From an uncultured Hyphomicrobiales bacterium (GTDB lineage: Bacteria; Pseudomonadota; Alphaproteobacteria; Rhizobiales; Hyphomicrobiaceae), in contig CADEFX010000001.1 of the NCBI GenBank assembly GCA_902826715.1, positions 1,972 to 65,971 on the forward strand: DNA of 64,000 bases. Direction: 5' to 3'. The stretch's first letter is position 1. Every line of letters begins with the position of its first letter. The notes below the pieces were generated by a model that saw only the letters and a list, made by a program, of their open reading frames with translations, had not been told where the DNA came from and did not search any database. Positions 22,101 to 47,986 of the stretch are shown piece by piece. The translations under genes were made by a program, and so were the position numbers.

Positions 22101-22841
22101 TCACGTCTCTGCGCCGCCGTTCACCTGGATCATCTGTCCGTTGATGAAAGCACCCGCGTCCGACGCAAGCAGCGCTACGGCCGCCGCAACCTCGTCAGGC
22201 TTGCCAAGCCGCCCCACGGGCACGCGCGCTTTCATCGGCGTGATATGCGCCGCCTGTACCGCGTCCTGCTCCTCGCCCATGATCGGGCCCGGCGACACGA
22301 TGTTGGCCGTGATCCCCTTTGGCCCGAACTCCTTCGCCAGCGCCTTGGTCAAACCCCATGACGCATGCTTGGATGCCGAGACGTGCGCGCGGCCGTTGTA
22401 GCCGTGGATCGCGTTCATGCCTGCGAAATTAATGATGCGGCCCCAGCCCTTGCCGACCATGCCCGGCAGCAGCACGCGCGACAGCCAGTACGACGCATCG
22501 AAATTGATCGCCATGACGCGGCGCCACTCGTCTTCCCTGAGTTCCAGGAAGCCGCCGTCCTCGCGTACGGCCGCATTGTTCACGAGCACGTCCACCGTGC
22601 CGAACTTGGCAAGGCTTTCCTCGGCCATGCGCATGCAGTCCGCGCGCTGGCCTACATCGCCCATCGCCACCAGCGCCTCAACACCCAGGTCGCGCGCTTC
22701 GTTCGCCACTTTCTGCGCGGCCTGCCGATCCTGCGATCCATTGATCACGACATTGTACCCGTCTTTCGCCAGCGTCAGAGCGCAGGCGCGCCCTATATTC
22801 TTGTTTGACCCCGTAATCAGCGCCGTACGCTTGCCTGCCAT
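22101..22841 (-). CDS. SDR family oxidoreductase
   Basis: ALITGSNKNIGRA, NNAA, and the S...Y/K catalytic region. The start ATG at 22841 lies 2 nt after the stop of the upstream molybdoenzyme gene. Confidence 0.85.
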   Translation of the reverse strand: MAGKRTALITGSNKNIGRACALTLAKDGYNVVINGSQDRQAAQKVANEARDLGVEALVAMGDVGQRADCMRMAEESLAKFGTVDVLVNNAAVREDGGFLELREDEWRRVMAINFDASYWLSRVLLPGMVGKGWGRIINFAGMNAIHGYNGRAHVSASKHASWGLTKALAKEFGPKGITANIVSPGPIMGEEQDAVQAAHITPMKARVPVGRLGKPDEVAAAVALLASDAGAFINGQMIQVNGGAET

Positions 22842-22843
22842 CT

Positions 22844-24928
22844 CTAATTGACCTTCCTGATCCACACATGATTGTCGTGGAATGCACCACCGCCGAACGG
22901 CGCAGGCTGGTCCGCGCCCGTCAGCGTGTTGATACCTTCCCCGTTTTCGAATTGATCGTTGGGCGCGATGCTTTCCACGATCACCACGCCGCGCCGGACG
23001 CCGTCGAACGACCGCGCCTGGATCCGGATTTCGCCGCGCCTGTTGCCCATGGCGATGCGCTCGCCATTGTTCACGCCCAGCTTCTCCAGATCGAGCGGAT
23101 GAATCATCGCCGAAGGCGGTCCCTCGCGCCTCTGGCTCGATGGCGTCTCGTTGAAGCTCGAATTCAGATATCCGCGCGCCGGCGACGTCGCGAGCCGGAA
23201 CGGATGCGCGTCATCGGCTTCCTCGATCACATTCCAGAAATCCGGCAGCACCGGCATCTCGCGATGCGGACCCATCGGCCCGGCATTGGCCATCTTCACA
23301 GCGGTCCAATCGGGCGAAAAATGAAACTTGCCGTCCGGATGCGCAAAACCGTTGAGGAAGTGTGCCGTTTCGAAATCCGGCTGACAGTCGATCCACTTCT
23401 CGGATTCGAGATTGTCGAGCGTGCCCCATCCGGAAACCGCCAGTGTCTCATCCACGATCTCGCGCGGTGTCATGTGGAAACCGCGATGCTCCGCGCCCAC
23501 GCGGCGCGCCAGATCGCAGATCACGTCATGGTTGCTCCAGCATTCGCCCGGCGGCTCGATGAGCTTGGGGCCGAGCAGGATGTGCTGGTTGCCGCCCGAC
23601 TGATACACGTCGTCGTGCTCCAGGAACATCGTCGCTGGAATGACCACGTCGGCCATCTGCGCCGTCGCCGTCAGGAACTGCTCGTGCACGCACACGAACA
23701 GATCCTCGCGTCCAAACCCCTGTTTCACCTTACGCTGTTCCGGAGCCACCTGCACCGGATTGGTGTTCTGGATCACCATCGCCTTGATCGGCGGGCCGTC
23801 GCGCAAGTCGAACGGGTCGCCCGTCAGCACCGGGCCGACGCGCGTCTGGTCGAGTTGGCGAATGCCCGGCTTTTTCGCATCGAGCCCTTCGATCAGCGCC
23901 TTGTTCCAGTGATAGATGGCATTGTTCTTGTGGAACGCCCCGCCGCCCTCGTTGAGCCAGGCACCCGTGATCGCCGGAATGCAGGAGGCGGCATGCATCG
24001 ACACCGAGCCGTTGCGCGAGCGCGCAAAGCCGTAGCCCAGCCGGAAGTAGCTGCGCGGTGTCTCCCCCACCCACTTGGCAAAGGTCTCGATATCCGCCAC
24101 CGGAATGCCCGTGATGCCGCTCGCCCATTCTGGCGTGCGGGTCTTGAGATGCTGCTCGAGCTCCCGCGGCTTGTCCGTGTATTGCTCCAGATACGGCCAG
24201 TTGGCGTAGCCATCGCGGAACAGCACGTGCATCACACCGCAGGCCAGCGCCGCATCCGTGCCCGGCCGCAGCACCAGCCCGAGATCGGCTTGGTCCATCG
24301 TGCCGTTACGATAGACATCCACCACCACCAGCCTCGCGCCGCGCTCCTTGCGCGCCCGCGTCACGTGCGACATGACGTTGACCTGGGTGTTGACAGGATT
24401 GGTACCCCAGATCGTGACCAGATCCGACTTGGCCATTTCGCGCGGATCGGGCCCCCGGGCGGCGCCGGCGCCGGCAAGAAATCCGGCTTCGGCCAGGGTC
24501 GTACAGATGGTCGAATACTGTCCCGCATAACCTTTGGCATTGCGCAGGCGATTGATGCCGTCGCGCATGACCAATCCCATGGTGCCGGCGTAATAGTAGG
24601 GCCAGACGCTCTCGGGCCCGAAGTCGCGCTCGGCTTTGAGCATCGCCTCGGCCGTGAGGCTCATGGCCTCCTCCCAGCCGATGCGCTCGAACTGGCCCGA
24701 CCCTTTCGGCCCTTTGCGCTTCAAAGGAAACAGCAGGCGATCCGGATGGTGCACGCGCTCGCCATAACGCGCGACCTTGGCGCAGACCACGCCGGCCGTA
24801 TAGCTGTTGGACTTGGCTCCATGGACGCGTCCGATCCGCCCGTTCCCCAGGAGCTCCACCTCGAGCGCGCAAGTGGACGGGCAATCGTGTGGGCAGGCCG
24901 AATACCCGATGGGTACCTTCGCATCCAT
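22844..24928 (-). CDS. molybdopterin-dependent oxidoreductase (bis-MGD family, N-terminal 4Fe-4S)
   Basis: N-terminal Cys cluster CPHDCPSTC; WGTNPVNT; C-terminal molybdopterin dinucleotide-binding-like domain. ATG at 24928 with a GGGAGA Shine-Dalgarno. Confidence 0.87.
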   Translation of the reverse strand: MDAKVPIGYSACPHDCPSTCALEVELLGNGRIGRVHGAKSNSYTAGVVCAKVARYGERVHHPDRLLFPLKRKGPKGSGQFERIGWEEAMSLTAEAMLKAERDFGPESVWPYYYAGTMGLVMRDGINRLRNAKGYAGQYSTICTTLAEAGFLAGAGAARGPDPREMAKSDLVTIWGTNPVNTQVNVMSHVTRARKERGARLVVVDVYRNGTMDQADLGLVLRPGTDAALACGVMHVLFRDGYANWPYLEQYTDKPRELEQHLKTRTPEWASGITGIPVADIETFAKWVGETPRSYFRLGYGFARSRNGSVSMHAASCIPAITGAWLNEGGGAFHKNNAIYHWNKALIEGLDAKKPGIRQLDQTRVGPVLTGDPFDLRDGPPIKAMVIQNTNPVQVAPEQRKVKQGFGREDLFVCVHEQFLTATAQMADVVIPATMFLEHDDVYQSGGNQHILLGPKLIEPPGECWSNHDVICDLARRVGAEHRGFHMTPREIVDETLAVSGWGTLDNLESEKWIDCQPDFETAHFLNGFAHPDGKFHFSPDWTAVKMANAGPMGPHREMPVLPDFWNVIEEADDAHPFRLATSPARGYLNSSFNETPSSQRREGPPSAMIHPLDLEKLGVNNGERIAMGNRRGEIRIQARSFDGVRRGVVIVESIAPNDQFENGEGINTLTGADQPAPFGGGAFHDNHVWIRKVN

Positions 24929-25021
24929 GGTGCGTTCTCCCAATGTCGTTACCGGAGAATAGCCGTGCCGATCCGCCAGAGGGAGAGGCTTCTTGGAATG
25001 ATTATTGAGAACTTGGGAAAG

Positions 25022-26929
25022 CTAGGCAACCTCTGGCCGATACTTATTCTTCGGTACGAAGCCCGACCGCTCCGCCTGGCGCGGCGCGCGGACCCAGACC
25101 TCGCGGTTGGGGTGCAAACCGCCACCGCGCGTGGCAGGAACAGCCGTGTGGCGCGCACGGTGCAGCAGGCGGGTGTCGGCCGCGCCGCAGTGGGGATGGA
25201 TGCCGCCGTTGCCGGCGACCACCTTATCCCAGGCCGCCTTGCGCGCGGCGAGCACGGCGGGATTGGCTAGCGCCGAACAGTTGAGCTCGTTGCTGTTCAG
25301 GTCGGCGACGATCTCATCGCCGTCCTCGATAAAGGCGATGGGGCCGCCGAGCGCCGCCTCCGGGCCCACATGACCGATGACGAGGCCCACCGAGCCGCCC
25401 GAGAAACGGGCGTCTGTCATGAGCGCAACCGTGATGCCGCGCTCGCGGCAGAGCGCGGTGATGCGCGAGGTTGGATCGAGCATTTCGGGCATGCCCGGCG
25501 CGCCGCTCGGGCCCTCATAGCGCACGATGATCATATCGTTGTTCTGAAAGCTGCCGGGATCTTTATCGAGCGCATTGATCAAGCCCTGCTCCCCTTCGAA
25601 GACGCGCGCCTTGCCTCGGAAGACATTGTTCTCAAGGCCGCCCTCGTAGATCTGCGCCTTGCTCATCGCGCCCTTGCTCTGCAGGCCATTGTCGACACCG
25701 GCGAGCTTGAGGATCGCCGAGAAATCCGGGGACAGGTTGCCGCCGAGCACACGCAAGCCGCCCGTCGGCTTGTAGGGCTTCTCGACGGGATAGACGACCT
25801 TGCCATCGGCGCGTTTGGCACCCAGGCGCTCGACCTGGCGGCCCAGCGTCTCGCCCGTGCAAGTCAGCACATCGCCATTGAGGAGCCCCGCCTCCAGCAA
25901 CTCGTGCACGATCACCTGAACGCCGCCGACGGCGTCGATATCGACCATCGAGTATTTGCCGTATGGCCGCGCATCAGTGAGTACCGGCACGAGATATTGC
26001 GAGAGGTGGTTGAACTCCTCCGGTGTCATGACCTCCTTCCAGAAGTCGGCGTAGCCGGCCGCGCGCGCGATCTCGGGCGCGTGCAACACTACGTTGGTCG
26101 AGCCGCCGATCGCCATCGCAACAATCACGGCATTGCGGAGCGAGTCGCGCACGACGATGTCGCGTGGCTTCACATCCTTCTCGATCAGCTTTGCCAGCAG
26201 GTCCACCAATTCAGCCGGGAATTCGTTCAGCCGGCGCGGATCGTCCGACGGCGGCGCCACCATGTGCAGCGGCTGCATACCGACGACGCCGATGAACGTC
26301 TGCATTGTGTTGTAGGTGAACATGCCGCCGCAGCTGCCGAACCCTGGGCAGGCATGACAGGCAATGTGGTAGCGGTGCTCGGGATCGGGATGCCCCGCGA
26401 CCTGGTAAGCACTTACGAGGTCAATCTTTTCACCCGTCGTGGGGTCGGTGCCGGGATGGATGGAGCCGTCCGACATCATGATTGCCGGCTGGTTGTGCTC
26501 GAGCAGCGCGGCGAGCGTCCCCACCGGCGGCTTGTCGCAAGCAACGACGGCGATCGTGCCGGCAAGGCCCGTCGCGCTCAGATGCTCGCAGAGCGCGTCG
26601 TGAGTCACCTCGCGACCGATCAAGGAGTAGCGCATCTCGCGCGTGCCGTTGCGGATGCCGTCTGATGTCGCGATCGTGTATTCGGGTTGGACAAGGCGCA
26701 GCTTGAGCTGCCCCGGCCCCTTGCCGACGCACGCCTTGAGGCGCGCGTGGATTGCATCGACTTTGTCCAGGACGCCCAGGTAGCACTGGCTGTCGCCCTT
26801 CGTGCCGACCACGCCGACCGACGGTTCGTGGATAAGCTCCGGATCGGTTCCAAGCTCGCGCGCGATACCCAGGGTCTGGGTCGAACGGCCCGGATGGCGG
26901 TCGATGAGCACGACATTTGAGTTCTTCAC
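25022..26929 (-). CDS. IlvD/Edd family dehydratase (sugar-acid/dihydroxy-acid dehydratase-like)
   Basis: ATSDGIRNG, VVACDKPPVG, RYEGPSGAPGMPEML and TDARFSGGS motifs. GTG start with an AGGAG Shine-Dalgarno. Confidence 0.9.
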   Translation of the reverse strand: MKNSNVVLIDRHPGRSTQTLGIARELGTDPELIHEPSVGVVGTKGDSQCYLGVLDKVDAIHARLKACVGKGPGQLKLRLVQPEYTIATSDGIRNGTREMRYSLIGREVTHDALCEHLSATGLAGTIAVVACDKPPVGTLAALLEHNQPAIMMSDGSIHPGTDPTTGEKIDLVSAYQVAGHPDPEHRYHIACHACPGFGSCGGMFTYNTMQTFIGVVGMQPLHMVAPPSDDPRRLNEFPAELVDLLAKLIEKDVKPRDIVVRDSLRNAVIVAMAIGGSTNVVLHAPEIARAAGYADFWKEVMTPEEFNHLSQYLVPVLTDARPYGKYSMVDIDAVGGVQVIVHELLEAGLLNGDVLTCTGETLGRQVERLGAKRADGKVVYPVEKPYKPTGGLRVLGGNLSPDFSAILKLAGVDNGLQSKGAMSKAQIYEGGLENNVFRGKARVFEGEQGLINALDKDPGSFQNNDMIIVRYEGPSGAPGMPEMLDPTSRITALCRERGITVALMTDARFSGGSVGLVIGHVGPEAALGGPIAFIEDGDEIVADLNSNELNCSALANPAVLAARKAAWDKVVAGNGGIHPHCGAADTRLLHRARHTAVPATRGGGLHPNREVWVRAPRQAERSGFVPKNKYRPEVA

Positions 26930-27061: not shown

Positions 27062-28150
27062 CTACGCCCGCATCCCCTCCAGCCCCTTCCAATCGAAGGC
27101 GACGCCGTGGCCCGGGCGGTCGGGCGCGATGGCATTCCCCTCGACGATCTTCATGGGCTCCGCGATGTACCGGTCTATGCCGAAGCCGTGCGTTTCCAGA
27201 TAGCTGCGGTTGGCGCAGGCCGCCAGCAGCTGCACCGTTACGTCGTGCGCACCATGTGACGTCACCGGCAGGTTGAAGGCCTCCGCCAGATGCGCCACCT
27301 TCATGAACACTGTCACGCCGCCGCAGTTCGTCACATCGGGCTCGGGATACGTGACGCCGCCCGACGCCACCATGTGCTTGAACTCCCACAGCGTGCGCAT
27401 GTTCTCGCCGGTCGCAATCGGCAGTCCGCTGTCGCGCACGATGCGCACGTGTCCCGCCACGTCGTCCGGAATCGTCGGCTCCTCGAGCCATACCAGCTCG
27501 AAGGGCTGGAACGCCCGTGCCCGGCGGATCGACTCGTCCACGGTCCATTTCATGTTGGCGTCGACCATCAGCGGAAAGCCGTCGCCCAGGTACTCGCGCA
27601 TGGCTTTGATGCGCGCGACATCTTCGGACATGCGGTCGCGCCCGACCTTCATCTTGATGGCCCGGAAGCCCTTGGCGAGATTTCCTTCCGTCTGCTTCAG
27701 CAGCGCCTCGGTCGTGAAATCCAGGTCGATGCCCCCGGCGTAACAGGGCACGAGCGGATCGTAGCCACCGAGCAGCTTCCACAGCGGCAGCTTCGCGCGC
27801 TTGGCCTTTAAATCCCACAGCGCGATATCGAGCGCCGACAGGGCCAGCACCGACGGACCGCCGCGGCCGCCGTAGTGCAGGCCCCACCATACCTTGTTCC
27901 AGACCTGCTCGATGCGATCTGCTTCCAAGCCCGCGACGATCTCGGGGATATCGCGAGACAAAGTGGCGTAGATCGCGCCGCCGTTATGGCCGGTGGTGTA
28001 GGTGTAGCCCATGCCTTCTTCACCGTCGGCATCGCGCACGCGGACGGTGATCAACTCGAACGCCGTCATGATCCCGTGCGTGGAATCCGACAACGGCTCA
28101 TCGAGTGGAATGCGATAGTGTCCGGCCGTCACGGCCGCGATCTTTGCCAC
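27062..28150 (-). CDS. mandelate racemase/muconate lactonizing enzyme family (enolase superfamily) protein
   Basis: KMKVGRD, metal ligands in MVDANMKW / WLEEP / IATGEN. About 362 aa. GTG start with a GGAGGAAG Shine-Dalgarno. Confidence 0.9.
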   Translation of the reverse strand: MAKIAAVTAGHYRIPLDEPLSDSTHGIMTAFELITVRVRDADGEEGMGYTYTTGHNGGAIYATLSRDIPEIVAGLEADRIEQVWNKVWWGLHYGGRGGPSVLALSALDIALWDLKAKRAKLPLWKLLGGYDPLVPCYAGGIDLDFTTEALLKQTEGNLAKGFRAIKMKVGRDRMSEDVARIKAMREYLGDGFPLMVDANMKWTVDESIRRARAFQPFELVWLEEPTIPDDVAGHVRIVRDSGLPIATGENMRTLWEFKHMVASGGVTYPEPDVTNCGGVTVFMKVAHLAEAFNLPVTSHGAHDVTVQLLAACANRSYLETHGFGIDRYIAEPMKIVEGNAIAPDRPGHGVAFDWKGLEGMRA

Positions 28151-28176: not shown

Positions 28177-29178
28177 TTAGTACGTCGCGAAGATGCGCCG
28201 GATCTCGCCCGGTTCTTTGGTCTTGGTCAGTGCCAGCGACAGGAGGATGCGTGCCTTCTGCGGCGTCAGGTTGTCCGCCGTCAGGAAGCCTGCCTCGCGG
28301 ATCTTGCTGGAGTTGAACACGCGGCCCGATCCCGCCCGCGATGACATCATCACGACAACACCCGCCGCATGTGCCTCCTTCAGAACGTCCATCTCGGAGG
28401 GCGATAGCATGCCCGGCGCAAACGCCGCCATGACGATGCCCTTGGCACCGGCCGCGACGAAAGCGCGAACGGCGGTGCCGTCATCGCCGGCGTACGAGTA
28501 AGCGATGTCAACGCGCGGCAGCGCATCGAGATTGCGGATGTCGAATTCCGTATCAGGGGCTCCCTTGCGGATCGGCTTGCGGTAGAACACGACGGCATCG
28601 CCGTCTGCATGTCCCAAGACTCCGAAATCCGGGCTGCGGAACGTCTGCAGCCGCGCCGTCGATGTCTTCGTCACCTCGCGCGCCGACTGGATCTCGTCAT
28701 TGAGACACACGAGCACGCCCAGGCCGCGCGCCTCCGCGGAGGCCGCTGTGCGCACAGCGTTGACGAGATTGAGCCCCGCGTCTGTCGACAGCGCACTGGC
28801 CGGCCGCTGCGAGCCGACCACCACGATGGGAACTTTCACCTTAGCCGTCAGATGCAGCGCATAGGCCGTCTCCTCCAGCGTCGCCGTGCCGTGCAGCACC
28901 ACGATGCCCGCCAGATCGGGATGCTCCGCCACCGCCTTGTCAGCCGCAAGCACCACGTGCTTCCACTCGGGAAAGGCGACGGCTGTGCTCGGCACGGCCT
29001 TGAACCGCACCGGGATCACGTCGGCAACAGATTTCACGTCGGAGAATTTCTCGACCATCTCGTCGGCCTGCAGCATCTTGCCAGTGGCCGTGTATTCGTA
29101 GAGATCGAGCGGGCCTTTGCCGATCGACGTAATGGTGCCGCCGGTGCCGATCACCGCGACTTTCGGTTTGCTCGTCAT
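28177..29178 (-). CDS. L-asparaginase/glutaminase family (type II-like) protein
   Basis: VAVIGTGGTITS catalytic Thr motif and HGTATLEETA. Internal ATG at 29178 with a GAGGATGG Shine-Dalgarno. The longer ORF to 29577 overlaps the DUF3303 gene and is rejected. Confidence 0.87.
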   Translation of the reverse strand: MTSKPKVAVIGTGGTITSIGKGPLDLYEYTATGKMLQADEMVEKFSDVKSVADVIPVRFKAVPSTAVAFPEWKHVVLAADKAVAEHPDLAGIVVLHGTATLEETAYALHLTAKVKVPIVVVGSQRPASALSTDAGLNLVNAVRTAASAEARGLGVLVCLNDEIQSAREVTKTSTARLQTFRSPDFGVLGHADGDAVVFYRKPIRKGAPDTEFDIRNLDALPRVDIAYSYAGDDGTAVRAFVAAGAKGIVMAAFAPGMLSPSEMDVLKEAHAAGVVVMMSSRAGSGRVFNSSKIREAGFLTADNLTPQKARILLSLALTKTKEPGEIRRIFATY

Positions 29179-29201: not shown

Positions 29202-29504
29202 TTACGCCTTGCGCGCCGGGCCAGTCTCTCGATCGATCACTGCATAGGCCGTCGCCGAGGTCTCCTTCGACGGCGACACCGGTATGATCTCGAACTCGGC
29301 CAGATCCGACCATTGCATGGTCCATTCCTGCAGCAAGCGGAGATCGTCGCACTCCATGAGCTGGAAACAGCGATCGAAGTTGCCCTCGATCCAACTGCCG
29401 TGGACGCTCAACCCTTCCGGCGCCATGCGGCCCTTGTCGCGAAAGCGCTGATAGATCGCTCGAGCGTTCTGATCCTTGAACCGCTCGATCACCATGAACA
29501 GCAT
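29202..29504 (-). CDS. DUF3303 domain protein
   Basis: MLFMVIERFKDQNARAIYQRFRDKGRMAPEGL...CFQLMECDD pattern recognised as DUF3303. About 100 aa from the internal ATG at 29504. Confidence 0.68.
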   Translation of the reverse strand: MLFMVIERFKDQNARAIYQRFRDKGRMAPEGLSVHGSWIEGNFDRCFQLMECDDLRLLQEWTMQWSDLAEFEIIPVSPSKETSATAYAVIDRETGPARKA

Positions 29505-29519
29505 CACACGCTCCGCGCT

Positions 29520-29650
29520 TTCGATCCCCCTCTCCCCGTCCTTCACGGGGAGGGGGTTGGGGTGGGGGCAGCTGCATACTCTATGGGTAAGGGCCTGCCC
29601 TCATCCTAACCTTCTCCCCGCGAGCGGGGGGGACGGGACCCAAAGCATCG
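29520..29650. repeat. GC-rich palindromic REP-like intergenic element (two hairpin modules)
   Basis: CCCCCTCTCCCCG-tccttca-CGGGGAGGGGG (29526-29556) and CTCCCC-gcgagc-GGGGGG (29614-29631), joined by ...CCCTCATCCTAACCTTCTCCCCGCGAGCGGGG... This resembles the short palindromic intergenic repeats common in Rhizobiales. Only one copy is present in this window. Confidence 0.4.
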
Positions 29651-29692
29651 CGGGGCTCCGCGACTGTCCACCGAGCTCATGACGACCTTGCC

Positions 29693-30625
29693 CTAGAACG
29701 CGACCTTGTCGCCGCCCTTCAACTGCAACGCCACACGCGCCTCGTCGGGCGAGGCGATCTCAAGGCCGAGCCCTTCGATGATCTGGCGCACGAGGCGCAC
29801 CTGCTCGGCATTGGACTTGGCAAGCTTGCCGCGTCCGGCCCAGAGCGAATCCTCCATGCCGACGCGAACATTGCCGCCCATGGCCGCCGACATCGCCGCG
29901 ATGGGAAGCTGGTTGCGCCCGGCGCCCAGCACCGACCAATGATATTCATCGCCGAACAGCCGGTCGGCCGTGCGCTTCATGTGCGCTACGTCCTCGGGAT
30001 GCGGGCCGATGCCGCCAAGGATGCCGAACACCGACTGGATGAAGAATGGCGGCTTGACGATGCCGCGGTCGGCGAAATGGCGCAGCGTGTAGAGATGCCC
30101 GATGTCGTAGCACTCGACCTCGAAGCGCGTGCCGTTCTCCGCGCACGTCGTCAGGATGTACTCGATATCGGCGAACGTGTTCTTGAAAAATCCGGCACGG
30201 GTGCCCTCGATGTAGGGCCGCTCCCAGTCGAACTTGAACTCCTTCTGCCGCGCCAGCATTGGGTAGAGGCCGAAGTTCATCGTCCCCATGTTGAGACTGG
30301 CGACTTCCGGCTTGAATATGGCCGCCGGGCGCACGCGCTCTTCCACCGTCATCGTCATGGCGCCGCCGGTGGTGATGTTGATCACGCAGCCCGAGCGCTG
30401 CTTGATGACCTTCAGGAACGGCGCGAACGCGTCGGTGGACTGATCCGGCTTGCCGGTCTTGGGGTCGCGCGCATGCAGATGCACGACCGCCGCCCCGGCT
30501 TCGGCCGCCCCAATGGCCGCGTCGGCGATTTCCTCGGCCGTAATCGGCAGATGCGGCGACATGGATGGCGTGTGGATCGAGCCCGTGACCGCACACGTGA
30601 TGATGACCTTCTTCGACTTAGCCAT
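29693..30625 (-). CDS. 3-keto-5-aminohexanoate cleavage enzyme family (BKACE, DUF849) protein
   Basis: VIITCAVTGSIHTPSMSPHLP, VVHLHARDP and NITTGG motifs; 310 aa. Confidence 0.87.
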   Translation of the reverse strand: MAKSKKVIITCAVTGSIHTPSMSPHLPITAEEIADAAIGAAEAGAAVVHLHARDPKTGKPDQSTDAFAPFLKVIKQRSGCVINITTGGAMTMTVEERVRPAAIFKPEVASLNMGTMNFGLYPMLARQKEFKFDWERPYIEGTRAGFFKNTFADIEYILTTCAENGTRFEVECYDIGHLYTLRHFADRGIVKPPFFIQSVFGILGGIGPHPEDVAHMKRTADRLFGDEYHWSVLGAGRNQLPIAAMSAAMGGNVRVGMEDSLWAGRGKLAKSNAEQVRLVRQIIEGLGLEIASPDEARVALQLKGGDKVAF

Positions 30626-31576: not shown

Positions 31577-31739
31577 GCACTCCTCCATTTCGCGTCTTTG
31601 CCGGCGAGAGTAGCACGCAGCCACGGCGACGCCAGTTGCGTTCGTGGGCCTTGCGAACCAATGGGTCCCGGCAATGAATGACGACAAGCCCGAGGATGAC
31701 ACTGCAGGTGGCGCAGCTGGGGCTCACACGGATCAGCGG

Positions 31740-32749
<1,010 letters not shown>

Positions 32750-32753
<4 letters not shown>

Positions 32754-37298: not shown

Positions 37299-37378
37299 GT
37301 CATCCTCTCCCTTTACTCCCGACGCTACATTCCGCGGCCGCCGGATCCCAGTACAAGTTGCGATTTCAGGCAATGTGC

Positions 37379-40352: not shown

Positions 40353-42355
40353 GCATCGATACGATCACTCTGGAGATCCTGAAGAACCACGCGCGGGCAG
40401 CGGCCGAAAGCATGGCGTTCACGCTCTATCGGACCGCGCACGCGACCTTCGTCAAGGAAACGGAGGACTTCACGACCGGATTGACCACGCCGGCCGGCGA
40501 GACCTACGCGACGCCAATCGAGCTGGGCGCCACATGGTTCGTGGGGCTCAACTACGGACCGGTCATCCGCGCGATCCCGCATTACGACGAAGGCGATATC
40601 TGCATTACCAACGACCCCTACTCAGGGTTCGTGTGCACGCACTCGCCCGACATCCACATCTGGAAGCCGATTTTTCACGAGGGCGAGATCGTCAGCTTCT
40701 CGGTCGGTCATATCCATCACACGGACATGGGCGGCGCGGTGCCGGCGTCATTGTCCCGGTCCCTGACCGAGGTGCATCAGGAAGGCATCCGCATCCCGCC
40801 GACCAAGATCATGACCAAGGGCGTGGTCAACCAGCAGGTGCTCGACATCCTGATGGCCAACGTGCGCGCGCCGGAGCAGAGCTGGGGCGATCTGAAGGCG
40901 CAGATCGCGTCGTGCAACACGGGCGAGCGCAAGGTGCGCGAGATGATCGCCAAGTTCGGCGTCGCAACCTTCAAGCAGGGTATCGAGGATCTGCTCGGAT
41001 ACGCCGAGGCGCAGGCGCGTGCCATCGTGCGGCGCATTCCCGACGGCGCCTATCAGTTCGCCGATTACATGGATGAGGATGCGGTCGACGGCAAGCCGTG
41101 CCGGCTGAACCTCATGATGACGGTCAAGGACGGCAGCCTGCACTTCGATTTTACGGGCTCGGACCCGCAGCTTGAATCGTCGCTCAACATTCCGACCGGT
41201 GGCGACGAACGGCATACGCTGCTGTGCGTCGGGCTGGTGTATGCGCTGTATTCCTTGGACCCGACGCTGTTCCTCAACTCGGGGATCGCGCGCATCCTGT
41301 CCTCGACACTGCCCAAAGGGACGATGATCAATCCGCAATTCCCGGCGGCAGTCGGGATGCGCACACTGTCGGCCAAACGCCTGCAGGGCGTCATTCTCGG
41401 CGCGTTCGCGCGGGCGTTGCCGGGCGAGATGCCGGCGGCATCGGCGTCTGGCGGGCCGATCATGAACGTCAACACCACGGACAATCGCACGGGCCGGCGC
41501 CTGATGGCGGCGATCAACCCGATGGTTGGCGGTGCGGGCGGGCGGGCGATGGAGGATGGCGCGGACGGCTCGGGGGCCAACCAAGGCTTCCTCAAGAACA
41601 CGCCGGTGGAGATCAACGAGGCCGAGGTGCCGCTGCGGTTCGAACGGTATGGACTGGCCAAGGACTCAGGCGGGCCCGGCAAGCATCGGGGCGGGCTCGG
41701 GACGGAGATGAAGTTCGAGGTGTTTGCGCCCAACACGCGGGTGACGGCGCGCAACCGCGACCGCACGGTGTTCGCGGGATGGGGCATGCGCGGCGGCAGG
41801 GTGGGGGCCAACTCGGCGTTCTGGCTCAATCCCGGATCGAACCGCGCCTTTAACTTGAGGAATACCGATATCGTGAAGGTCGGCCCCGGCGACGTGGTGT
41901 ATGTGGCTTGTGGCGGGGCGAGCGGTTACGGCGATCCGCTAGAGCGCGACCCGCGCAAGGTCGCGCTGGATGTTCGGCGCGGGTATGTTTCGGCCGACAA
42001 GGCGCGCGAGGACTACGGCGTGGTGATTGTCGATGGTGCGGTGGATGCTGCCGCCACGGCGTCGCTGCGCAAGGAGCGAAAAGCGGAGAGCCAGAAGGGC
42101 GAACCTGCCATCTTCGACTACGGGGCCGCCCGCGATGCGCATGAGGCGATCTGGACCGAGAAGAGCTACGCGACACTGACCAAGCTGCTGGCGGCGCAGC
42201 CGGTGCATTGGCGCTTCTACCTGAAGCACCGCGTGTTCGATGCCATTGCGGCCCTGCCGGACGGCGAACGCAAGGGCGACGGCAGCGACGTGGCGCGGAT
42301 ATTCGCCAAGCTGATCGAGGAATTTCCGCAGCTCGCGGCGCAGGCGGCGGAGTAG
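40349..42355 (+). CDS. hyuB: hydantoinase B/oxoprolinase family protein (copy 1)
   Basis: MSIDTITLEILKNH start, ITNDPYSG, NTPVEINEAEVPLRFERYGLAKDSGGPGKHRGGLG. The ATG overlaps the hyuA stop (ATGA). Confidence 0.9.
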   Translation: MSIDTITLEILKNHARAAAESMAFTLYRTAHATFVKETEDFTTGLTTPAGETYATPIELGATWFVGLNYGPVIRAIPHYDEGDICITNDPYSGFVCTHSPDIHIWKPIFHEGEIVSFSVGHIHHTDMGGAVPASLSRSLTEVHQEGIRIPPTKIMTKGVVNQQVLDILMANVRAPEQSWGDLKAQIASCNTGERKVREMIAKFGVATFKQGIEDLLGYAEAQARAIVRRIPDGAYQFADYMDEDAVDGKPCRLNLMMTVKDGSLHFDFTGSDPQLESSLNIPTGGDERHTLLCVGLVYALYSLDPTLFLNSGIARILSSTLPKGTMINPQFPAAVGMRTLSAKRLQGVILGAFARALPGEMPAASASGGPIMNVNTTDNRTGRRLMAAINPMVGGAGGRAMEDGADGSGANQGFLKNTPVEINEAEVPLRFERYGLAKDSGGPGKHRGGLGTEMKFEVFAPNTRVTARNRDRTVFAGWGMRGGRVGANSAFWLNPGSNRAFNLRNTDIVKVGPGDVVYVACGGASGYGDPLERDPRKVALDVRRGYVSADKAREDYGVVIVDGAVDAAATASLRKERKAESQKGEPAIFDYGAARDAHEAIWTEKSYATLTKLLAAQPVHWRFYLKHRVFDAIAALPDGERKGDGSDVARIFAKLIEEFPQLAAQAAE

Positions 42356-42358: not shown

Positions 42359-43135
42359 ATGGACATCGCCTTCGAAGGGCAGACGGTCGTCGTAACGGGC
42401 GTGGCGCGTGGCATCGGCCGTGCCATCGCGCGAGGCTTTGCCGAGCGCGGCGCGCATGTGCAAGCGCTGGACATTCTGGCGGACGGGTTGGCTGAATGTG
42501 CGCGTGATGTTGCGGCGGCGCGCGGCGGATCGGTGACGACGCATCAGGTCGATCTCGGTGATGCGCCGGCCGTGACTGCGACGATCCGCAATATCGAGGC
42601 GAAGGCGCGGGCTGGTGCGATCGATGTTCTGGTGCATGCCGCCGGCGGCATTCGCGGACGGACCAAGGCGCCGATCGAGAATGTCTCCGATGAAGACTGG
42701 CGCACCATCATGGATGCGAACGTGACGGCTGCGTTTCATCTGGCACGGGCAGTGGCGCCGGCCATGAAGGCCGCGGGCAAAGGGCGGTTCGTTGCCATTT
42801 CCTCGCAGGCGGGGCTGGGCGTCAGCCTGACCGGAATCCAGGCCTACGGCACGGCGAAGGCGGCGGAGATCGGTTTCGTCAAGCAGCTTGCAGCGGAGCT
42901 GGGAGCCTCCGGCATCACCGTCAACTCTGTGGCGCCGGGGTTCATGCCCACGAGCCCGGACTACGTGAAGCAGTGGGAAGGGTACAGCGCGGAGCGGCAG
43001 AAGCAGATCGTCGAGTCGATTGCGCTGCGGCGCATCGGCAAGCCGGAGGACATCGCGCATGCCGTGATGTTCCTGGCGTCGGACTATGCCGGATTTATCA
43101 CCGGGCAGACGCTGCTCGTCAGGGGAGGCCCCTAA
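42359..43135 (+). CDS. SDR family oxidoreductase
   Basis: VVVTGVARGIGRAIA, YGTAKAA catalytic motif; 258 aa. Confidence 0.88.
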   Translation: MDIAFEGQTVVVTGVARGIGRAIARGFAERGAHVQALDILADGLAECARDVAAARGGSVTTHQVDLGDAPAVTATIRNIEAKARAGAIDVLVHAAGGIRGRTKAPIENVSDEDWRTIMDANVTAAFHLARAVAPAMKAAGKGRFVAISSQAGLGVSLTGIQAYGTAKAAEIGFVKQLAAELGASGITVNSVAPGFMPTSPDYVKQWEGYSAERQKQIVESIALRRIGKPEDIAHAVMFLASDYAGFITGQTLLVRGGP

Positions 43136-43136: not shown

Positions 43137-45209
43137 GTGGCAGGACAATCGCGAGAGGGTTTCGCCCTCGCGCTCGACGTGGGCGGCACCTTCACCGACG
43201 TGATCCTGGCCGACCGGCGCAGCGGGCAATTCACAGTGACGAAGTCGTCGTCGGTCCCGAGCGACCCCGCGAGCGGGTTCTTCGGTGGCGTCGATAAGAT
43301 CCTGGCGTTGGCGAAAGTGGCGCCGAAGAACGTGAGCGTGGTCCTGCACGGCTCGACGCTGGCGACCAACGCCATTCTGGAGGCGAAGGGCGCGCGCACA
43401 GGCCTCGTGACGACGCGCGGCTTCCGGCATGTGCTGGAGATCGGCCGGGCCGATATCCCGCGCAACGCCAACCTCTACGGCTGGGTCAAGCCGAAGCGGC
43501 CCGTGCCGCCGCGGCACGTGTTCGAGGCGAGCGAACGCGTGCTTGCGGACGGGACGGTGCATGTCGCGCTGGCGGAGGCGGAGCTGGCAGGGATCGCAAA
43601 GCAGATCCGCGACGAGGATTTGGCGGCGGTGGCCATCGTGTTCCTCAACAGCTTCGCCAATCCGGCGCACGAGCAGCGTGCTGCGGCTGTTCTGCGCGAC
43701 CTGCTGCCCGGCGTGGAGATCGCCGTCTCGAGCGACGTGCTGCCCATCTTCCGTGAGTACGAGCGTACGCTCGCCACGGTGATCAATGCCTCGGTGCAGC
43801 CTCTTGCCGGCAGATACGTCAAGCGTTTGTCGCAGGGGCTCGACGAGCGCAAGATCGTATCGCCGTTCTTCATCATGAAGTCGAACGGCGGTGTCTTTCC
43901 CCCTGCCGAGGCGTCGCGGCAGCCGGTGTATCTGGCCCTCTCAGGGCCGGCGGCGGGCGCACGGGGAGCGGCCCACATCGGCCGAATCGCCGGATACAAG
44001 GATCTCATCACCATCGACATGGGCGGCACCAGCGCCGACGTGGCGCTGATCCGCGACGGCGAGCCCGTCACGGCGACGTCCGGGCGCGTCGGCGAATTTC
44101 CCCTCGCACTGCCGATCGTCGATATCCATGCCATCGGCGCGGGTGGAGGTTCGATTGCTGCGGTGGGCCCGGAAGGTGCCTTGACGGTCGGACCGGAAAG
44201 CGCCGGCGCCGATCCGGGGCCTGCAGCCTATGGCAAGGGCGGGCGCCGCGCGACAGTGACGGATGCCAATCTCGTGCTCGGCCGCGTGCCGCCGCATTTG
44301 CTCGATGGAGAGATTGCGCTGCATCGCGTCGAGGCTGAGGCAGCGATCCTGCGGGACGTGGCGGCGCCGCTCGGCGTATCGCTGGAAGACGCGGCGCGCG
44401 GCATTGTCGAGATCGTCGACAACAATATGGTCGGTGCGCTGAAGGTCATGTCGGTGGAGCGGGGGCTCGCACCGTCCGACTTCACGCTGTGTGCCTTCGG
44501 CGGGGCCGGGCCGGTACACGGTAGCCGTCTGATGCGGCTCCTCGGGGCGCCGCGGCTGCTCATTCCCCGGCATCCCGGCATTCTCTGCGCCATGGGCTTG
44601 CTGGCGACGGATCTCAAGTACGACTTCGCGGTGACGCGGCTGCAGCGCGGCGGCCGCTACGACCTGGAGGCCATCGAGGCGACGCTGCGCGACCTGGAGC
44701 AGCAGGCGCACGCGCGGCTTGAGACAGATGGCGTGCCGCCGGAACGGCGGCAGATCATTCGCGCCGCGGATTTGCGTTACGCACATCAAGGCGTGGAAAT
44801 ATCGGTGCCCATCGGCGAGGGGCGCATGACGCAAGCCTCGGCGGATGATCTGGTCGACCGCTTCCACGAGCAGCATCAACAGCTCTACACGTTCGCGGAC
44901 CGCAAAACGCCGGTGGAACTGGTGAACCTGCGGGTCTATGCCAACGGGCTGATGGATCATGTGACGCTGCCGGAGATCGGGCGGGCGCCGGCGGGTGAAA
45001 AACCACCGGCGAGCGGCATGCGGCCGGCCGCGCCGGAAGGCTCGGCCATCGCCGAGGTGCCGGTGTACCGGCGCGAGCGATTGCTGGCCGGGCATGTCAT
45101 CATCGGGCCTGCCATCGTCGACCAGCTCGACTGCACGACGGTGGTCCTGTCGGGGCAGGTAGCGACGGTGGACCGGGTCGCCAATCTCACCATCGAGGAG
45201 GCGCGCTGA
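43137..45209 (+). CDS. hyuA: hydantoinase/oxoprolinase family protein, A subunit (copy 2)
   Basis: FALALDVGGTFTDV, IDMGGTSADV, AIGAGGGSIA. GTG at 43137, 1 nt after the SDR stop. Confidence 0.87.
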   Translation: MAGQSREGFALALDVGGTFTDVILADRRSGQFTVTKSSSVPSDPASGFFGGVDKILALAKVAPKNVSVVLHGSTLATNAILEAKGARTGLVTTRGFRHVLEIGRADIPRNANLYGWVKPKRPVPPRHVFEASERVLADGTVHVALAEAELAGIAKQIRDEDLAAVAIVFLNSFANPAHEQRAAAVLRDLLPGVEIAVSSDVLPIFREYERTLATVINASVQPLAGRYVKRLSQGLDERKIVSPFFIMKSNGGVFPPAEASRQPVYLALSGPAAGARGAAHIGRIAGYKDLITIDMGGTSADVALIRDGEPVTATSGRVGEFPLALPIVDIHAIGAGGGSIAAVGPEGALTVGPESAGADPGPAAYGKGGRRATVTDANLVLGRVPPHLLDGEIALHRVEAEAAILRDVAAPLGVSLEDAARGIVEIVDNNMVGALKVMSVERGLAPSDFTLCAFGGAGPVHGSRLMRLLGAPRLLIPRHPGILCAMGLLATDLKYDFAVTRLQRGGRYDLEAIEATLRDLEQQAHARLETDGVPPERRQIIRAADLRYAHQGVEISVPIGEGRMTQASADDLVDRFHEQHQQLYTFADRKTPVELVNLRVYANGLMDHVTLPEIGRAPAGEKPPASGMRPAAPEGSAIAEVPVYRRERLLAGHVIIGPAIVDQLDCTTVVLSGQVATVDRVANLTIEEAR

Positions 45210-47023
45210 TGCGAGGGGCCGCAGACATATCCTCTCCGGCGCAGGACCGGATTACGCTGGAGCTTGTGAAGGGCGCGCTCGGAGCGGCGCGTTCCGAGAT
45301 GGAGGCGCTGATCGCGCGGACATCGATGTCGCCATTCATTCGCGAGAAGAAGGATTTCTTCACGGCATTCCTCGACCGTGATGGCAATCTCGTGGTGTCG
45401 ACCGCTCTGACGCTGGCGGGCAATCTGGTGGCCGCGATCATCGAGCAGTATCCGCGCGAGGACATGCGCGACGGCGACCTGTACTGGTACAACGATGTGT
45501 ACGCCTCCAAGGGCGGCGTGAGCCAGGTCAACGACACGGTGTTCGTGATGCCCGTGTTCGACGGCGGCCGCCTCGTGGCGTTCGCGGAGGCCTGGGGCCA
45601 TTTGTGGGACGTGGGCGGCACGTATCCGGGCTCGGTCAGCCCGCACGCCACCAGCGTCTTTCACGAAGGCATCATGATCCCGCCGGTGCGCGTGATGCGC
45701 GACGGCGTCATCAACGACGAGGTGGTGCGCATCTACCAGCGCAATTCGCGCTTTCCCGAGATGATGAAGGGCGATCTCAATGCCATCATGGCGGCCTGCA
45801 AGCTCGGCAAGCAGCGGCTGCAGGAGACGATCGAGCGCTATGGCGGGGAGGCCGTCGAGGCGGCGTTCGCCGAGATGCTGCGGCGCAACGAGGCCGCGCT
45901 GCGCCGGCAGATCGAAACGCATGTGCCCGACGGGCAATGGCGATTTCGCGATTGGATCGATTCAGACGCTGCAACCGATAATGCGTATTACGTCGAGGCG
46001 CAGCTCCAGAAGAAGGCGGGCAAGCTGGCGATCGATCTGTCAGGGTCTTCAGACCAGGCGCTGGGGTCCATCAACTTCGTCATGGATGACAGCGTCATCG
46101 GCCACATCCTCGGCCTCTACATGACGCGCGACGATCCGAGCGTCGGCATGAATGCGGGTTTCACGCGTGCCATCGACACCATCGTCAAGAGGCCGGGCAG
46201 CATCGTGTGGCCGGATTTTCCGGCGGCTGTCGGATTGCGCTCGCACACCATGCTGCGCGTAACGACGGCATTGCAGGGTGCGTTGGCGCAGGCGACGGGC
46301 GGCAAGGCGTCCGGCGCGTCGGCGGTGTATGTGCTCTACTACCTGCGCAGCCTCGACAAGGAGACGCGGGCGCCGCTGCTGTGCGTGGACGGCCTGGCCG
46401 TGGGCTTCGGAGCGCGATCGACCGCCGACGGCATCGACGCGGTCTACTACGTGGCGCAGGAGAACTAGCCGGTCGATTTGGGCGAGATGGAGTTCGGCAT
46501 TCGCATCGAAAGCTTCGGCGTGCACCTGGACTCGGGTGGCCCCGGGCGCTGGCGCGGCGGCTGCGGGATCGTGCGCGATGTGCGCGTGCTCGTCGATGAA
46601 GCGACGCTGGGCGTGCGCATGGACAATTGCCGGTACCCGGCGTTCGGCGTCAACGGCGGCATGAGCGGCAGTGGCGGCGGCTTCATTCTCAATCCGGGAA
46701 CGCCGGAGGAGCGGCATTTGCCGACCATGAGCGACGGGCACAGGCTGAAGAAGGACGATCTGCTGCGTGTCATCACGCCAGGTGGCGGTGGCTGGGGATC
46801 ACCACTGGATCGGCCGGCGGAGGATGTGCTGGCGGATGTGCGCGACGGGTTCGTGTCGGCAGAGCGTGCGTTCGATGTCTACGGTGTGGTTCTGGGCGCT
46901 GATGGGCGCAGCGTCGATGCGGCGGCGACGACGGAGCGGCGCGCTGCGCTGCCGCGCAGCAGCAAGATGTTTCATCGCGGTACGTACTACGACGCGGTGG
47001 ACGATCTCGCGGCTCGCGGCTAG
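45209..47023 (+). pseudogene. hyuB: hydantoinase B/oxoprolinase family gene (copy 2) interrupted by an in-frame TAG at 46466-46468
   Basis: ORFs 45209-46468 and 46478-47023 are in the same frame. Together they align colinearly with copy 1 (copy 1 KN-T-PVEINEAEVPLRFERYGL...DSGGPGKHRGG versus copy 2 EN-*-PVDLGEMEFGIRIESFGV...DSGGPGRWRGG). The start overlaps the hyuA copy 2 stop (TGATG). Confidence 0.6.
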
Positions 47024-47218
47024 GCCACCGAGGCGACGTCACGCAGTTGTGGCCCTGGATCGGCGCTCGCGCTTGGCGAGCGTCATGGCGATACCTGGAT
47101 CGTGAGGCTCCGGTTCCGCGCGCGACGGGGGAGCCAAAGTCCGCGCGGCCGCCGGTCCGCTTCAATATGAGCCGGAAACGCTTTAGCGTGTGTTCGATAA
47201 CGTCGTTGGGGAAACGCC

Positions 47219-47986
47219 ATGATCACGCTGCCAACTCCGCCGAGCTTTCGTCTGGATGGAAAGCGCGCGCTCGTGACGGGGGCGGGGCGCGGCATCGGAT
47301 TGGCGGCGGCCGCGGCGCTGGCGGACGCGGGCGCACATGTGGTGCTGGCGGCGCGGACGCGGGACGAGATCGATGAGGCCGCTGAGGCGATCCGCGCCAA
47401 GGGCGGATCGGCGGAGGCGCTGCCACTCGATGTGACGAATCTCGATGCGGTGCAAAAAGCCATCGGCAAGCAGGCGCCGTTTCACGTCCTCTTTAACAAT
47501 GCGGGCGGCAACCGGCCGCAGCCGTTTCTGGCGTTCAAGATCGAAGATTTCGATTTCATCATGGATCTCAACGTGCGCGCCGCCTTCGTCACGGCCCAGG
47601 CGGTGGCCCGGCGCATGGTCGAGGCTAAAATCGCCGGCTCGCTCATTCACACGACATCGCAGATGGCTTTCACGACGGGACCGGGACGCACAGTGTATTG
47701 CGCGTCGAAGGCGGCGGTGGAGGCGTTTTCGCGCGGGATTGCCCTGGAGTTGGCGCCGCACGGCATCCGCTCCAACACCCTCGCGCCGACCTTCATCGAA
47801 ACGCCGATGTCCAAGTCGTTTCTGGAGGATAAGGCGCTCAAGGACTTCGTGATGGCCAAGATCAAGCTCGGCCGCATCGGGCAGGTCGAGGACCTGACGG
47901 GCGCGATCGTGTATCTGGCGTCAGATGCGTCGTCGCTGATGACCGGCACGCATATGCTGATTGATGGCGGGTGGACGCTGGGGTGA
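47219..47986 (+). CDS. SDR family oxidoreductase
   Basis: ALVTGAGRGIGLAAA, NNAG, YCASKAA; 255 aa. Confidence 0.88.
   Translation: MITLPTPPSFRLDGKRALVTGAGRGIGLAAAAALADAGAHVVLAARTRDEIDEAAEAIRAKGGSAEALPLDVTNLDAVQKAIGKQAPFHVLFNNAGGNRPQPFLAFKIEDFDFIMDLNVRAAFVTAQAVARRMVEAKIAGSLIHTTSQMAFTTGPGRTVYCASKAAVEAFSRGIALELAPHGIRSNTLAPTFIETPMSKSFLEDKALKDFVMAKIKLGRIGQVEDLTGAIVYLASDASSLMTGTHMLIDGGWTLG

Follow-up and report, generated by a model that had tools for sequence, protein, structure and literature searches.

Gene content and layout of the locus

The window, a 64,000-nucleotide stretch of a draft assembly of an uncultured Hyphomicrobiales bacterium, carries a run of 20 consecutive genes (Table 1), of which 14 lie on the minus strand and 6 on the plus. 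The run is bordered by bamB (18741-20075) together with an S10-like peptidase gene and, at its other end, by hemY (47987-49747). The original prediction, which treated the run as a catabolic supercluster between core genes, had named families for all 20 products, the DUF3303 protein included; Pfam and NCBIfam bore these out, and the gene set, as claimed, matches no characterised pathway. It had also described two divergent, tightly packed and translationally coupled operons. The point of divergence and all four ATGA/TGATG start/stop overlaps (32750-32753, 33778-33781, 40349-40352 and 45209) are real, and many neighboring genes overlap or stand 0-26 bp apart, but tight packing does not extend throughout. 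The minus-strand array is interrupted by gaps of 78, 132, 188, 163 and 82 bp and the plus-strand array by one of 195 bp; these gaps coincide with the cassette borders described below, and two of them contain dispersed REP-like repeats.

The predicted lack of a local regulator and of mobility genes holds, in that Pfam assigns no DNA-binding, integrase or transposase domain to any of the 20 products. A tRNA search found none, an Rfam search returned zero matches, a repeat search gave no meaningful flanking direct repeats, and GC, GC3 and codon usage lie within the range of the genome. With neither integrase, transposase, tRNA target, flanking repeats nor deviant composition, a genomic island or mobile element is not supported.

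Table 1. Genes and sequence features of the 20-gene block (window coordinates)
Feature	Position	Strand	Basis or remark
SDR a (short-chain dehydrogenase)	22101-22841	-	Pfam adh_short_C2, 185 bits
Cytoplasmic molybdopterin (bis-MGD) oxidoreductase, N-terminal 4Fe-4S domain (Mo enzyme)	22844-24943	-	Pfam Molybdop_Fe4S4, Molybdopterin, Molydop_binding
IlvD/Edd-family dehydratase	25022-26929	-	Pfam ILVD_EDD_N/C
Enolase-superfamily enzyme, acid-sugar dehydratase/cycloisomerase type	27062-28150	-	Pfam MR_MLE_N/C
Asparaginase-type amidohydrolase, 333 aa	28177-29178	-	Pfam Asparaginase, Asparaginase_C
DUF3303 protein	29202-29504	-	PF11746, 108 bits
Dispersed REP-like element in 188-bp gap	29514-29692	.	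Cassette border; 20 matches at other loci of the same genome
BKACE (beta-keto acid cleavage enzyme)	29693-30625	-	Pfam BKACE PF05853, 364 bits
NAD-dependent beta-hydroxy-acid dehydrogenase (3HCDH family), BKACE partner	30638-31576	-	Pfam 3HCDH_N/3HCDH
Junction of left and importer halves, 163 bp	31577-31739	.	REP-like core 31682-31704; cumulative GC-skew minimum 31602
DppF, ATPase of peptide/opine-type ABC importer	31740-32753	-	Pfam ABC_tran and oligo_HPY
DppD, ATPase of the same importer	32750-33781	-	Pfam ABC_tran and oligo_HPY
DppC, permease	33778-34632	-	Pfam BPD_transp_1
DppB, permease	34637-35641	-	Pfam BPD_transp_1
Strong hairpin, then T-rich run, after binding-protein gene	35678-35707	-	13-pair stem, 10 G-C pairs
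Family-5 substrate-binding protein (SBP)	35724-37373	-	Pfam SBP_bac_5, 251 bits
SDR b, first gene of importer transcription unit	37379-38137	-	Pfam
Divergent control region, palindromes conserved within genus	38138-38300	.	Alignment of G000, G004 and G002
HyuA1	38301-40352	+	Pfam
HyuB1	40349-42355	+	Pfam
SDR c	42359-43135	+	Pfam
HyuA2	43137-45209	+	Pfam
HyuB2, broken by in-frame TAG	45209-47023	+	Pfam HyuB 1-397 and 412-519 on two same-frame ORFs
SDR d	47219-47986	+	Pfam; after 195-bp gap; stop abuts hemY stop

SDR a starts 2 bp past the stop codon of the Mo enzyme, for which no NCBIfam model reached its cut-off (top model Fdh-alpha, 232 bits against 666) and which has FdhF (144 bits) as its top match in the PDB. 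The dehydratase is not IlvD at equivalog level, scoring 379 bits against 618 for TIGR00110 and staying below cut-off in NCBIfam. Similarly, the enolase-superfamily enzyme fails as an L-talarate/galactarate dehydratase (262 bits against an NCBIfam cut-off of 500), although its superfamily membership holds; in the PDB it matches the "putative racemase" 2OVL at 473 bits and 3,6-anhydro-L-galactonate cycloisomerase at 335 bits. The asparaginase-type gene has a GAGGA ribosome-binding site before its start codon, and its product has no long N-terminal extension before the asparaginase domain. For the DUF3303 protein we found no solved relative.

BKACE and its partner dehydrogenase, 12 bp apart, belong to the families proposed for them. 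BKACE scores 553 bits on the NCBIfam equivalog NF053538, above its cut-off of 430, and aligns over its full length with PDB 8RIO (477 bits), BKACE15 from Paracoccus denitrificans, of which it is a close relative. The substrates of BKACE15 were determined in vitro, and its physiological role is itself not established (PMC11961710). The dehydrogenase, which has an ATG start with a GGAGGAG site, passes its own model (NF004783, 395 bits against 347), and the pair resembles carnitine-type dehydrogenase-BKACE pairs. The enzymes would act in sequence, with a medium-chain beta-hydroxy acid oxidized to the beta-keto acid, which BKACE may then convert with acetyl-CoA to acetoacetate and an acyl-CoA. Unlike BKACE15 and the carnitine-type pairs, the BKACE here has neighbors that differ from genus to genus, its orthologs in other genera (71-85% identity) lying in varied surroundings.

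The importer half encodes every part of a Dpp/Opp-type system: the family-5 binding protein, a pair of permeases and a pair of ATPases that carry the oligo_HPY tail. In both Hyu pairs the HyuA subunit combines the Hydant_A_N, Hydantoinase_A and Hydant_A_C domains and HyuB is a separate protein, and the two pairs are only 30-35% identical to each other. HyuB2 is interrupted by a TAG codon at 46466-46468, where four congeners have a tyrosine codon (TAT/TAC).

Distribution of the genes in related genomes

We searched 40 relatives by whole-genome DNA comparison, among them five Hyphomicrobiaceae of the same genus (G001-G005); the sources of G004 and of the loci L028 and L029 are MAGs, other drafts may be too, and their assemblies could contain errors. 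The 20 genes are not adjacent as a set in these relatives, and the parts of the block lie at separate loci in all five congeners. In G004 the importer/Hyu half occupies C91:9828-26444, the left half C91:92900-101056, and the IlvD-like gene contig C17; the IlvD-like slot of the left half holds instead what reads, from its translation, as a GNAT-like ORF. In G005, SDR a and the Mo enzyme are on C42 and the genes from enolase through dehydrogenase on C57. Certain groups do travel together. SDR a adjoins the Mo enzyme in all five congeners, and G001, G003 and G004 keep together not only this pair but also enolase-asparaginase-DUF3303 and BKACE-dehydrogenase, for which reason the left half could be one functional unit in the genus. 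G001, G003 and G004 have their IlvD-like orthologs (89-92% identity) on other contigs, the DUF3303 ortholog in G004 is 93% identical, and homologs of SDR d (76-77% identity) occupy other loci in G001 and G005.

SDR a and the Mo enzyme match at separate places in other genera, and none of the enolase orthologs (60-79% identical, 10 genomes) has another block gene within ~10 kb, while in G019, a member of another genus, the enolase, BKACE and dehydrogenase genes are neighbors. Across 11 importer loci (G002, G004, L028, L029, the Paroceanicella plasmid pD4M1A, G352, G144, G307, G217, G342 and G197), left-half genes were found within ~10 kb of the importer cassette in 0 of 11.

These data indicate that the block does not encode one pathway but is a lineage-specific mosaic, its catabolic cassettes having been inherited independently, a reading to which we assign a probability of about 0.78. 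The DNA and its genes are real, and at least five separately inherited cassettes have been set side by side by chance. The order along the locus would be SDR with molybdopterin oxidoreductase (cassette 1); the IlvD-like dehydratase, in the slot of the GNAT-like ORF of G004 (cassette 2); enolase-superfamily enzyme, asparaginase-type amidohydrolase and DUF3303 protein (cassette 3); beta-hydroxy-acid dehydrogenase with BKACE (cassette 4); the importer, with SDR-SBP-DppBCDF facing HyuA1-HyuB1-SDR (cassette 5); HyuA2-HyuB2 (cassette 6); and a lone SDR (cassette 7).

The junction between the two halves

Cassettes 1-4 appear to have been joined to cassettes 5-7 by a rearrangement or an assembly join at the REP-like repeat in the 163-bp junction. 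Among the genomes compared, the two halves adjoin in this assembly alone. Blast maps show each arm of the window to be colinear with G004 and G003, the one as far as 31640-31655 and the other from 31736 onward, and the cumulative GC-skew minimum falls inside the junction, whereas in G004 the skew is uniformly negative over both halves. The REP-like core has at least 32 exact occurrences in the genome. The join arose by a recent inversion or is the product of a chimeric MAG contig.

The second of these, in which the true chromosome would take the left half on into an AMP-ligase gene, the arrangement of G003 and G004, and the importer half into other genes, is a serious possibility that we rate at somewhat below even odds. 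The genome is fragmented (412 contigs, N50 18.6 kb), its close relatives G004 and L028/L029 are likewise MAGs, a short dispersed repeat stands at the end of the junction, and the skew flips exactly there. Moreover, contig C354 begins 25 bp inside the ligase gene, C29 begins inside the SDR gene that adjoins the neighbor of dppF in G004, and the bin holds no sequence between these contig ends and the junction, although a real inversion predicts this pattern of contig ends equally well. Against a chimera, the junction is clean and intergenic with both flanking genes intact, and the repeat core is just ~21-45 bp long. In G002, too, the DppF-side breakpoint adjoins a rearranged partner, which suggests a true recombination hot spot.

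A single supercluster is not supported, because the parts separate in same-genus genomes and the junction is unique and coincides with a skew flip at a REP-like repeat. That all 20 genes form one two-operon system that imports one N-containing cyclic amide or peptide-like compound and degrades it stepwise is highly improbable. The genes are contiguous and often closely spaced, every one comes from a catabolic or transport family, and the junction has no predicted terminator-like site, so that the adjacency, if real, could permit co-expression; but the wide gaps fall at the cassette borders, the IlvD-like gene is elsewhere in congeners, and the parts do not co-occur in the wider alphaproteobacterial samples. 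Comparative synteny, GC skew and the junction repeat thus dissolve the apparent 26-kb supercluster, and adjacency of genes in one draft MAG is weak pathway evidence. The useful remainder is a defined 9-11-gene cassette of importer and ATP-dependent hydrolase, to which the proposed import and breakdown of an N-containing cyclic compound can be confined: import and lactamase-type ring opening fit the importer/Hyu half, not all 20 genes.

Proposed function of the importer/Hyu cassette

Cassette 5 alone (SBP-DppBCDF, SDR, HyuA-HyuB, SDR), with cassette 6 as an alternative partner, is a conserved system. Binding-protein homologs (55-67% identity) occur in 8 of 400 sampled Alphaproteobacteria, and the cassette is scattered over several families and plasmid-borne in one case. 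In that case, Paroceanicella profunda pD4M1A (NZ_CP040819, 73681-86847), nine adjacent genes match SDR b, SBP, DppBCDF, HyuA1, HyuB1 and SDR c at 54-73% identity (59-73% for DppBCDF; 54-61% for HyuA1, HyuB1 and SDR c). They run in one direction in the order IclR-HyuA-HyuB-SDR-polysaccharide deacetylase-SBP-permeases-ATPases-SDR, whereas the window has a divergent arrangement with neither IclR nor deacetylase and adds HyuA2B2 and SDR d. The layout recurs in G144, G307 and G217, and in other Alphaproteobacteria the cassette usually carries both additional genes. Copies of SDR b (66-75% identical) accompany the importer in other genomes, and in G352 a HyuA2B2-like pair (61-65% identical) adjoins the same importer. 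Related cassettes have an IclR gene in place of the control region, in which the alignment of G000, G004 and G002 retains GTCGACAATATTGAC and GGTCAATGAATTG; expression here may be set at these palindromes by a regulator encoded elsewhere.

The cassette most likely encodes an uncharacterised pathway that takes up a polar cyclic amide and opens its ring in an ATP-dependent step. The binding protein and DppBCDF would import a substrate of lactam, hydantoin or imide type, HyuA/HyuB would spend ATP to open the ring, and the SDRs may oxidize hydroxyl groups of substrate or product. A fuller version, in which a polar cyclic amide or imide pathway uses HyuA1B1 and/or HyuA2B2 as two different ring-opening enzymes, a PuuE-like polysaccharide deacetylase and IclR are usual elsewhere, and the local regulator has been lost in this genus, has in our judgment about an even chance of being correct.

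Two-subunit ATP-dependent relatives of this kind include caprolactamase CapAB of Pseudomonas jessenii, N-methylhydantoinase and 5-oxoprolinase (PMC8453981). The Hyu proteins of the block share the two-subunit architecture with all Pfam domains, find their top NCBIfam and PDB matches in this hydrolase branch, and like CapAB come without an extra carboxylase subunit. They are not CapA/CapB at equivalog level: HyuA1 and HyuB1 score 479 and 264 bits, and the Hyu proteins together 264-534 bits (479-534 and 264 for the two models), against cut-offs of 1000. The locus also differs from CapAB-type systems in having two Hyu pairs of low mutual identity, and in their coupling to a Dpp-type importer and SDRs, with a polysaccharide deacetylase in relatives. 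Since acetone and acetophenone carboxylases are HyuA/B-type enzymes too (PMC8453981, PMC5214803), the SDRs could supply ketones from secondary alcohols and BKACE accepts beta-keto acids, the Hyu pairs might be ATP-dependent ketone carboxylases that link both halves of the block, but this is very improbable given PDB scores of 241/211 bits on the N-methylhydantoinase/hydrolase side against 119/87 for carboxylases (acetone carboxylase Acx, 87), caprolactamase models at 479-534 bits against 243-247 for carboxylase models (Apc models overall 131-247, cut-offs 1250-1500), no block product matching a carboxylase small-subunit family in Pfam, an importer type that fits polar solutes, and a BKACE never near the importer cassette in other genomes sampled.

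We also considered the AgaA system of Agrobacterium, which handles the lactam opine agropinic acid with a family-5 binding protein and a Dpp-type ABC system. The binding protein of the block matches AgaA (6HLX), among other PDB entries. The Ti-plasmid neighbors of AgaA presumably include Hyu-like lactamase genes, although our literature search found no paper linking AgaA or agropinic acid with Hyu-like lactamases. The assignment is not supported: the binding protein scores higher against DppA (155 bits) than against AgaA (112 bits).

The pD4M1A cassette has a generic annotation only and is not characterised. The cassette recurs in cultured bacteria such as P. profunda D4M1, in which ordinary genetics could identify its substrate. 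Even one new HyuA/HyuB substrate would aid annotation, because very few members of the family have known substrates; in the genome studied here ~14 HyuA/HyuB pairs are present, of which several lie next to family-5 ABC systems.

Gene content and setting of the block

We called genes across the block at 22101-47986 from an ORF listing and GC-frame analysis, supported by Pfam and NCBIfam scans, and obtained 20 genes. The gene content as originally predicted was correctly read. All four of the start/stop overlaps that had been claimed are real, but the view that the genes form two uniformly tight operons fails, with gaps of 78, 132, 188, 163, 82 and 195 bp lying within the arrays. Two ORF calls were rejected: a 181-aa ORF at 46478-47023, considered as DUF3303, is the C-terminal piece of HyuB2, and a 466-aa 'asparaginase' ORF is over-extended.

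Genes of the block (ORF calls with Pfam/NCBIfam assignment)
Feature	Coordinates	Strand	Remark
SDR a	22101-22841	minus	
Molybdopterin oxidoreductase	22844-24943	minus	
IlvD/Edd-family dehydratase	25022-26929	minus	
Enolase-superfamily enzyme	27062-28150	minus	
Asparaginase-type amidohydrolase	28177-29178	minus	
DUF3303	29202-29504	minus	
BKACE (beta-keto acid cleavage enzyme)	29693-30625	minus	
3HCDH-type dehydrogenase	30638-31576	minus	
DppF, DppD, DppC, DppB	31740-35641	minus	
Family-5 substrate-binding protein (SBP)	35724-37373	minus	
SDR b	37379-38137	minus	
HyuA1	38301-40352	plus	
HyuB1	40349-42355	plus	
SDR c	42359-43135	plus	
HyuA2	43137-45209	plus	
HyuB2	45209-47023	plus	in-frame TAG inside
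SDR d	47219-47986	plus	

In line with the predicted bamB and hemY sides, a yfgM-like gene/bamB and an S10-like peptidase lie to the left of the block, and to its right are hemY, a Mic60-like gene, hemD and hemC. The peptidase is a 639-aa serine carboxypeptidase (20169-22088) coming after bamB, a place where der is expected from other Alphaproteobacteria. The predicted absence of regulator and mobility genes also held, Pfam finding neither DNA-binding nor mobility domains in any of the 20 products; tRNA and Rfam scans found nothing, and a repeat scan of the flanks gave no meaningful direct repeats. GC, GC3 and codon usage of the block are ordinary and match the rest of the genome, so we rejected a compositional signal of recent transfer. 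The gene content of the block is ordinary.

The BKACE scores above the cut-off of the NCBIfam equivalog for 3,5-dioxohexanoate:acetyl-CoA acetone transferase and is close to Paracoccus BKACE15 (PDB 8RIO), which acts in vitro on C5-C6 beta-keto acids and has no known physiological role (PMC11961710). For the enolase member, the nearest matches are an uncharacterised 'racemase' (PDB 2OVL) and 3,6-anhydro-L-galactonate cycloisomerase. The IlvD-like protein, under the equivalog cut-off, lies nearer true dihydroxy-acid dehydratases than sugar-acid dehydratases, and the molybdopterin enzyme had no close characterised relative among its NCBIfam and PDB matches.

Arrangement in relatives and the junction at 31577-31739

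DNA searches of 40 related genomes and blast maps of fetched neighbourhoods, the named close relatives being Hyphomicrobiaceae MAGs, revealed that the parts of the block are differently arranged in the same genus (G001-G005). SDR a with the molybdopterin enzyme, the enolase, asparaginase and DUF3303 genes, and BKACE with the dehydrogenase are neighbours in G001, G003 and G004; in G005 the first pair is on one contig and the rest on another. Orthologs of the IlvD-like gene (89-92% identity) are on other contigs of G001, G003 and G004, and in G004 its slot is taken by a small ORF that reads as GNAT-like. As in the window, the importer/Hyu half adjoins hemY in both G002 and G004; it was not found beside the BKACE end in any relative examined by these searches and maps. 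Both halves are on a single 144-kb contig of G004, 66 kb apart. The best matches to HyuA2B2 and SDR d in G001 and G005 are at separate loci, and these genes are missing from the cassettes at two further fetched loci (L028 and L029). BKACE orthologs of 71-85% identity outside the genus differ in their neighbours, enolase, BKACE and dehydrogenase are kept together only in G019, and ten genomes with an enolase ortholog (60-79% identity) have no other block gene within ~9 kb of it. With parts at separate loci in congeners and the halves apart, the original prediction of a 26-kb catabolic supercluster is not supported.

Left-arm homology to G003 and G004 stops at 31640-31655, and right-arm homology to G004 and G002 starts at 31736-31745. 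The G004 order would become that of the window through a single inversion between the DppF and dehydrogenase ends. Both expected partner ends of the assembly are broken, contig C354 beginning 25 bp within the AMP-ligase gene and C29 within an SDR lying past G004's DppF neighbour, and the ligase and metallophosphoesterase genes were not found in the bin. A chimeric contig and a real inversion account for this pattern equally well. Either way, whether through inversion or chimera, the adjacency of the two halves is not an evolved unit.

Of the two measures originally proposed for comparison, codon usage is ordinary and GC skew flips inside the block, in a sharp polarity switch in mid-contig. The cumulative G-C minimum, for the window and for the whole contig, is at 31602 (contig position 33573); skew is negative in 26 of the 31 1-kb windows to its left (mean -0.046) and positive in 31 of the 32 to its right (mean +0.086). 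Because skew is uniformly negative across both halves in G004's own arrangement of the same genes, we take the flip as a recent orientation change and reject a replication origin as its cause.

In G002 (contig C10, locus L017) the DppF and AMP-ligase genes are separated by two genes that read as a hicA/hicB-like toxin-antitoxin pair, just past the DppF stop and at the very breakpoint that is rearranged in the window. A REP-like hairpin repeat has its core within the junction, at 31682-31704, and the repeat is also present in the dehydrogenase-ligase spacer of G003; exact 13-mer cores number at least 32 in the source genome, and 64 with one mismatch allowed. The core reads GGGTCCTCGG-ACAAG-CCCGAGGATGACAC, and copies are often inverted pairs with a spacing of ~100 bp. 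Another repeat family, of the CCCTCTCCCCG...CGGGGAGGGG type, occupies 29514-29692.

The importer/Hyu cassette

SDR b, the SBP and DppBCDF, facing HyuA1, HyuB1 and SDR c, have counterparts 54-73% identical on the Paroceanicella profunda plasmid pD4M1A, in the order IclR, HyuA, HyuB, SDR, polysaccharide deacetylase, SBP, two permeases, two ATPases, SDR. In contrast to that plasmid, the cassette in the window's genus has neither IclR nor deacetylase. Among 400 evenly chosen Alphaproteobacteria, eight have SBP homologs of 55-67% identity: three (G144, G307, G217) share the pD4M1A layout with IclR and deacetylase, G352 combines a HyuA2B2-type pair (61-65% identical) with SDR b, importer and deacetylase, SDR b and the importer occur in G342 and G197, a short contig of G206 carries just the importer, and in G222 the SBP match alone passed the coverage filter. 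These neighbourhoods show the two Hyu pairs to be alternative partners of the importer. The importer/HyuAB cassette is conserved but uncharacterised, and is a modest, testable lead. Plasmid HyuB homologs of 52-55% identity in Paracoccus, Agrobacterium, Azospirillum and Thalassobaculum were set aside, their neighbours being unrelated.

The Hyu proteins, whose family background is given elsewhere (PMC8453981), resemble N-methylhydantoinase and caprolactamase more than the carboxylases. We infer that the cassette would take up a polar cyclic amide, open its ring using ATP and carry out SDR oxidation steps. A link to agropinic-acid catabolism was rejected, as no paper in the literature searched mentions both and the SBP has a closer match than AgaA. 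The source genome (4.8 Mb) has ~14 HyuA/HyuB pairs, several beside family-5 ABC systems (~14 HyuA and 14-16 HyuB paralogs, on C10, C12, C19, C63 and other contigs); C63 has three pairs, and C12 and C19 each have one directly beside a family-5 importer.

A cognate IclR in this genome was rejected, since the cassette-linked IclR has no ortholog there and only two IclR-family genes occur elsewhere. Palindromes in the divergent region (at 38169-38215) are kept in an alignment of the three congeners holding the cassette. Promoter and terminator scans of the block stayed at background level except for a hairpin between the binding-protein gene and dppB, at 35678-35707, where a 13-bp G+C-rich stem is followed by a T-rich run; we read it as the usual device that would raise the binding protein's share of transcript.

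The SBP is 92% identical to that of G002 and 84% to that of G004, nearly all other block proteins being closer to G004, a pattern that may point to diversifying selection on this protein or to allelic exchange. Off the cassette, the source genome has a 64% identical homolog of the cassette-linked deacetylase (C193:7310-8197), which adjoins genes read as mutS- and glnD-like.

An in-frame TAG at 46466-46468 interrupts HyuB2 where four congeners have the Tyr (TAT or TAC) of a conserved QENYP motif. The two fragments are 91% and 87% similar to G004, level with neighbouring genes, so that the stop is either very recent or a base-call error. Three further amino-acid changes fall in the six codons after the TAG, in an otherwise conserved motif.
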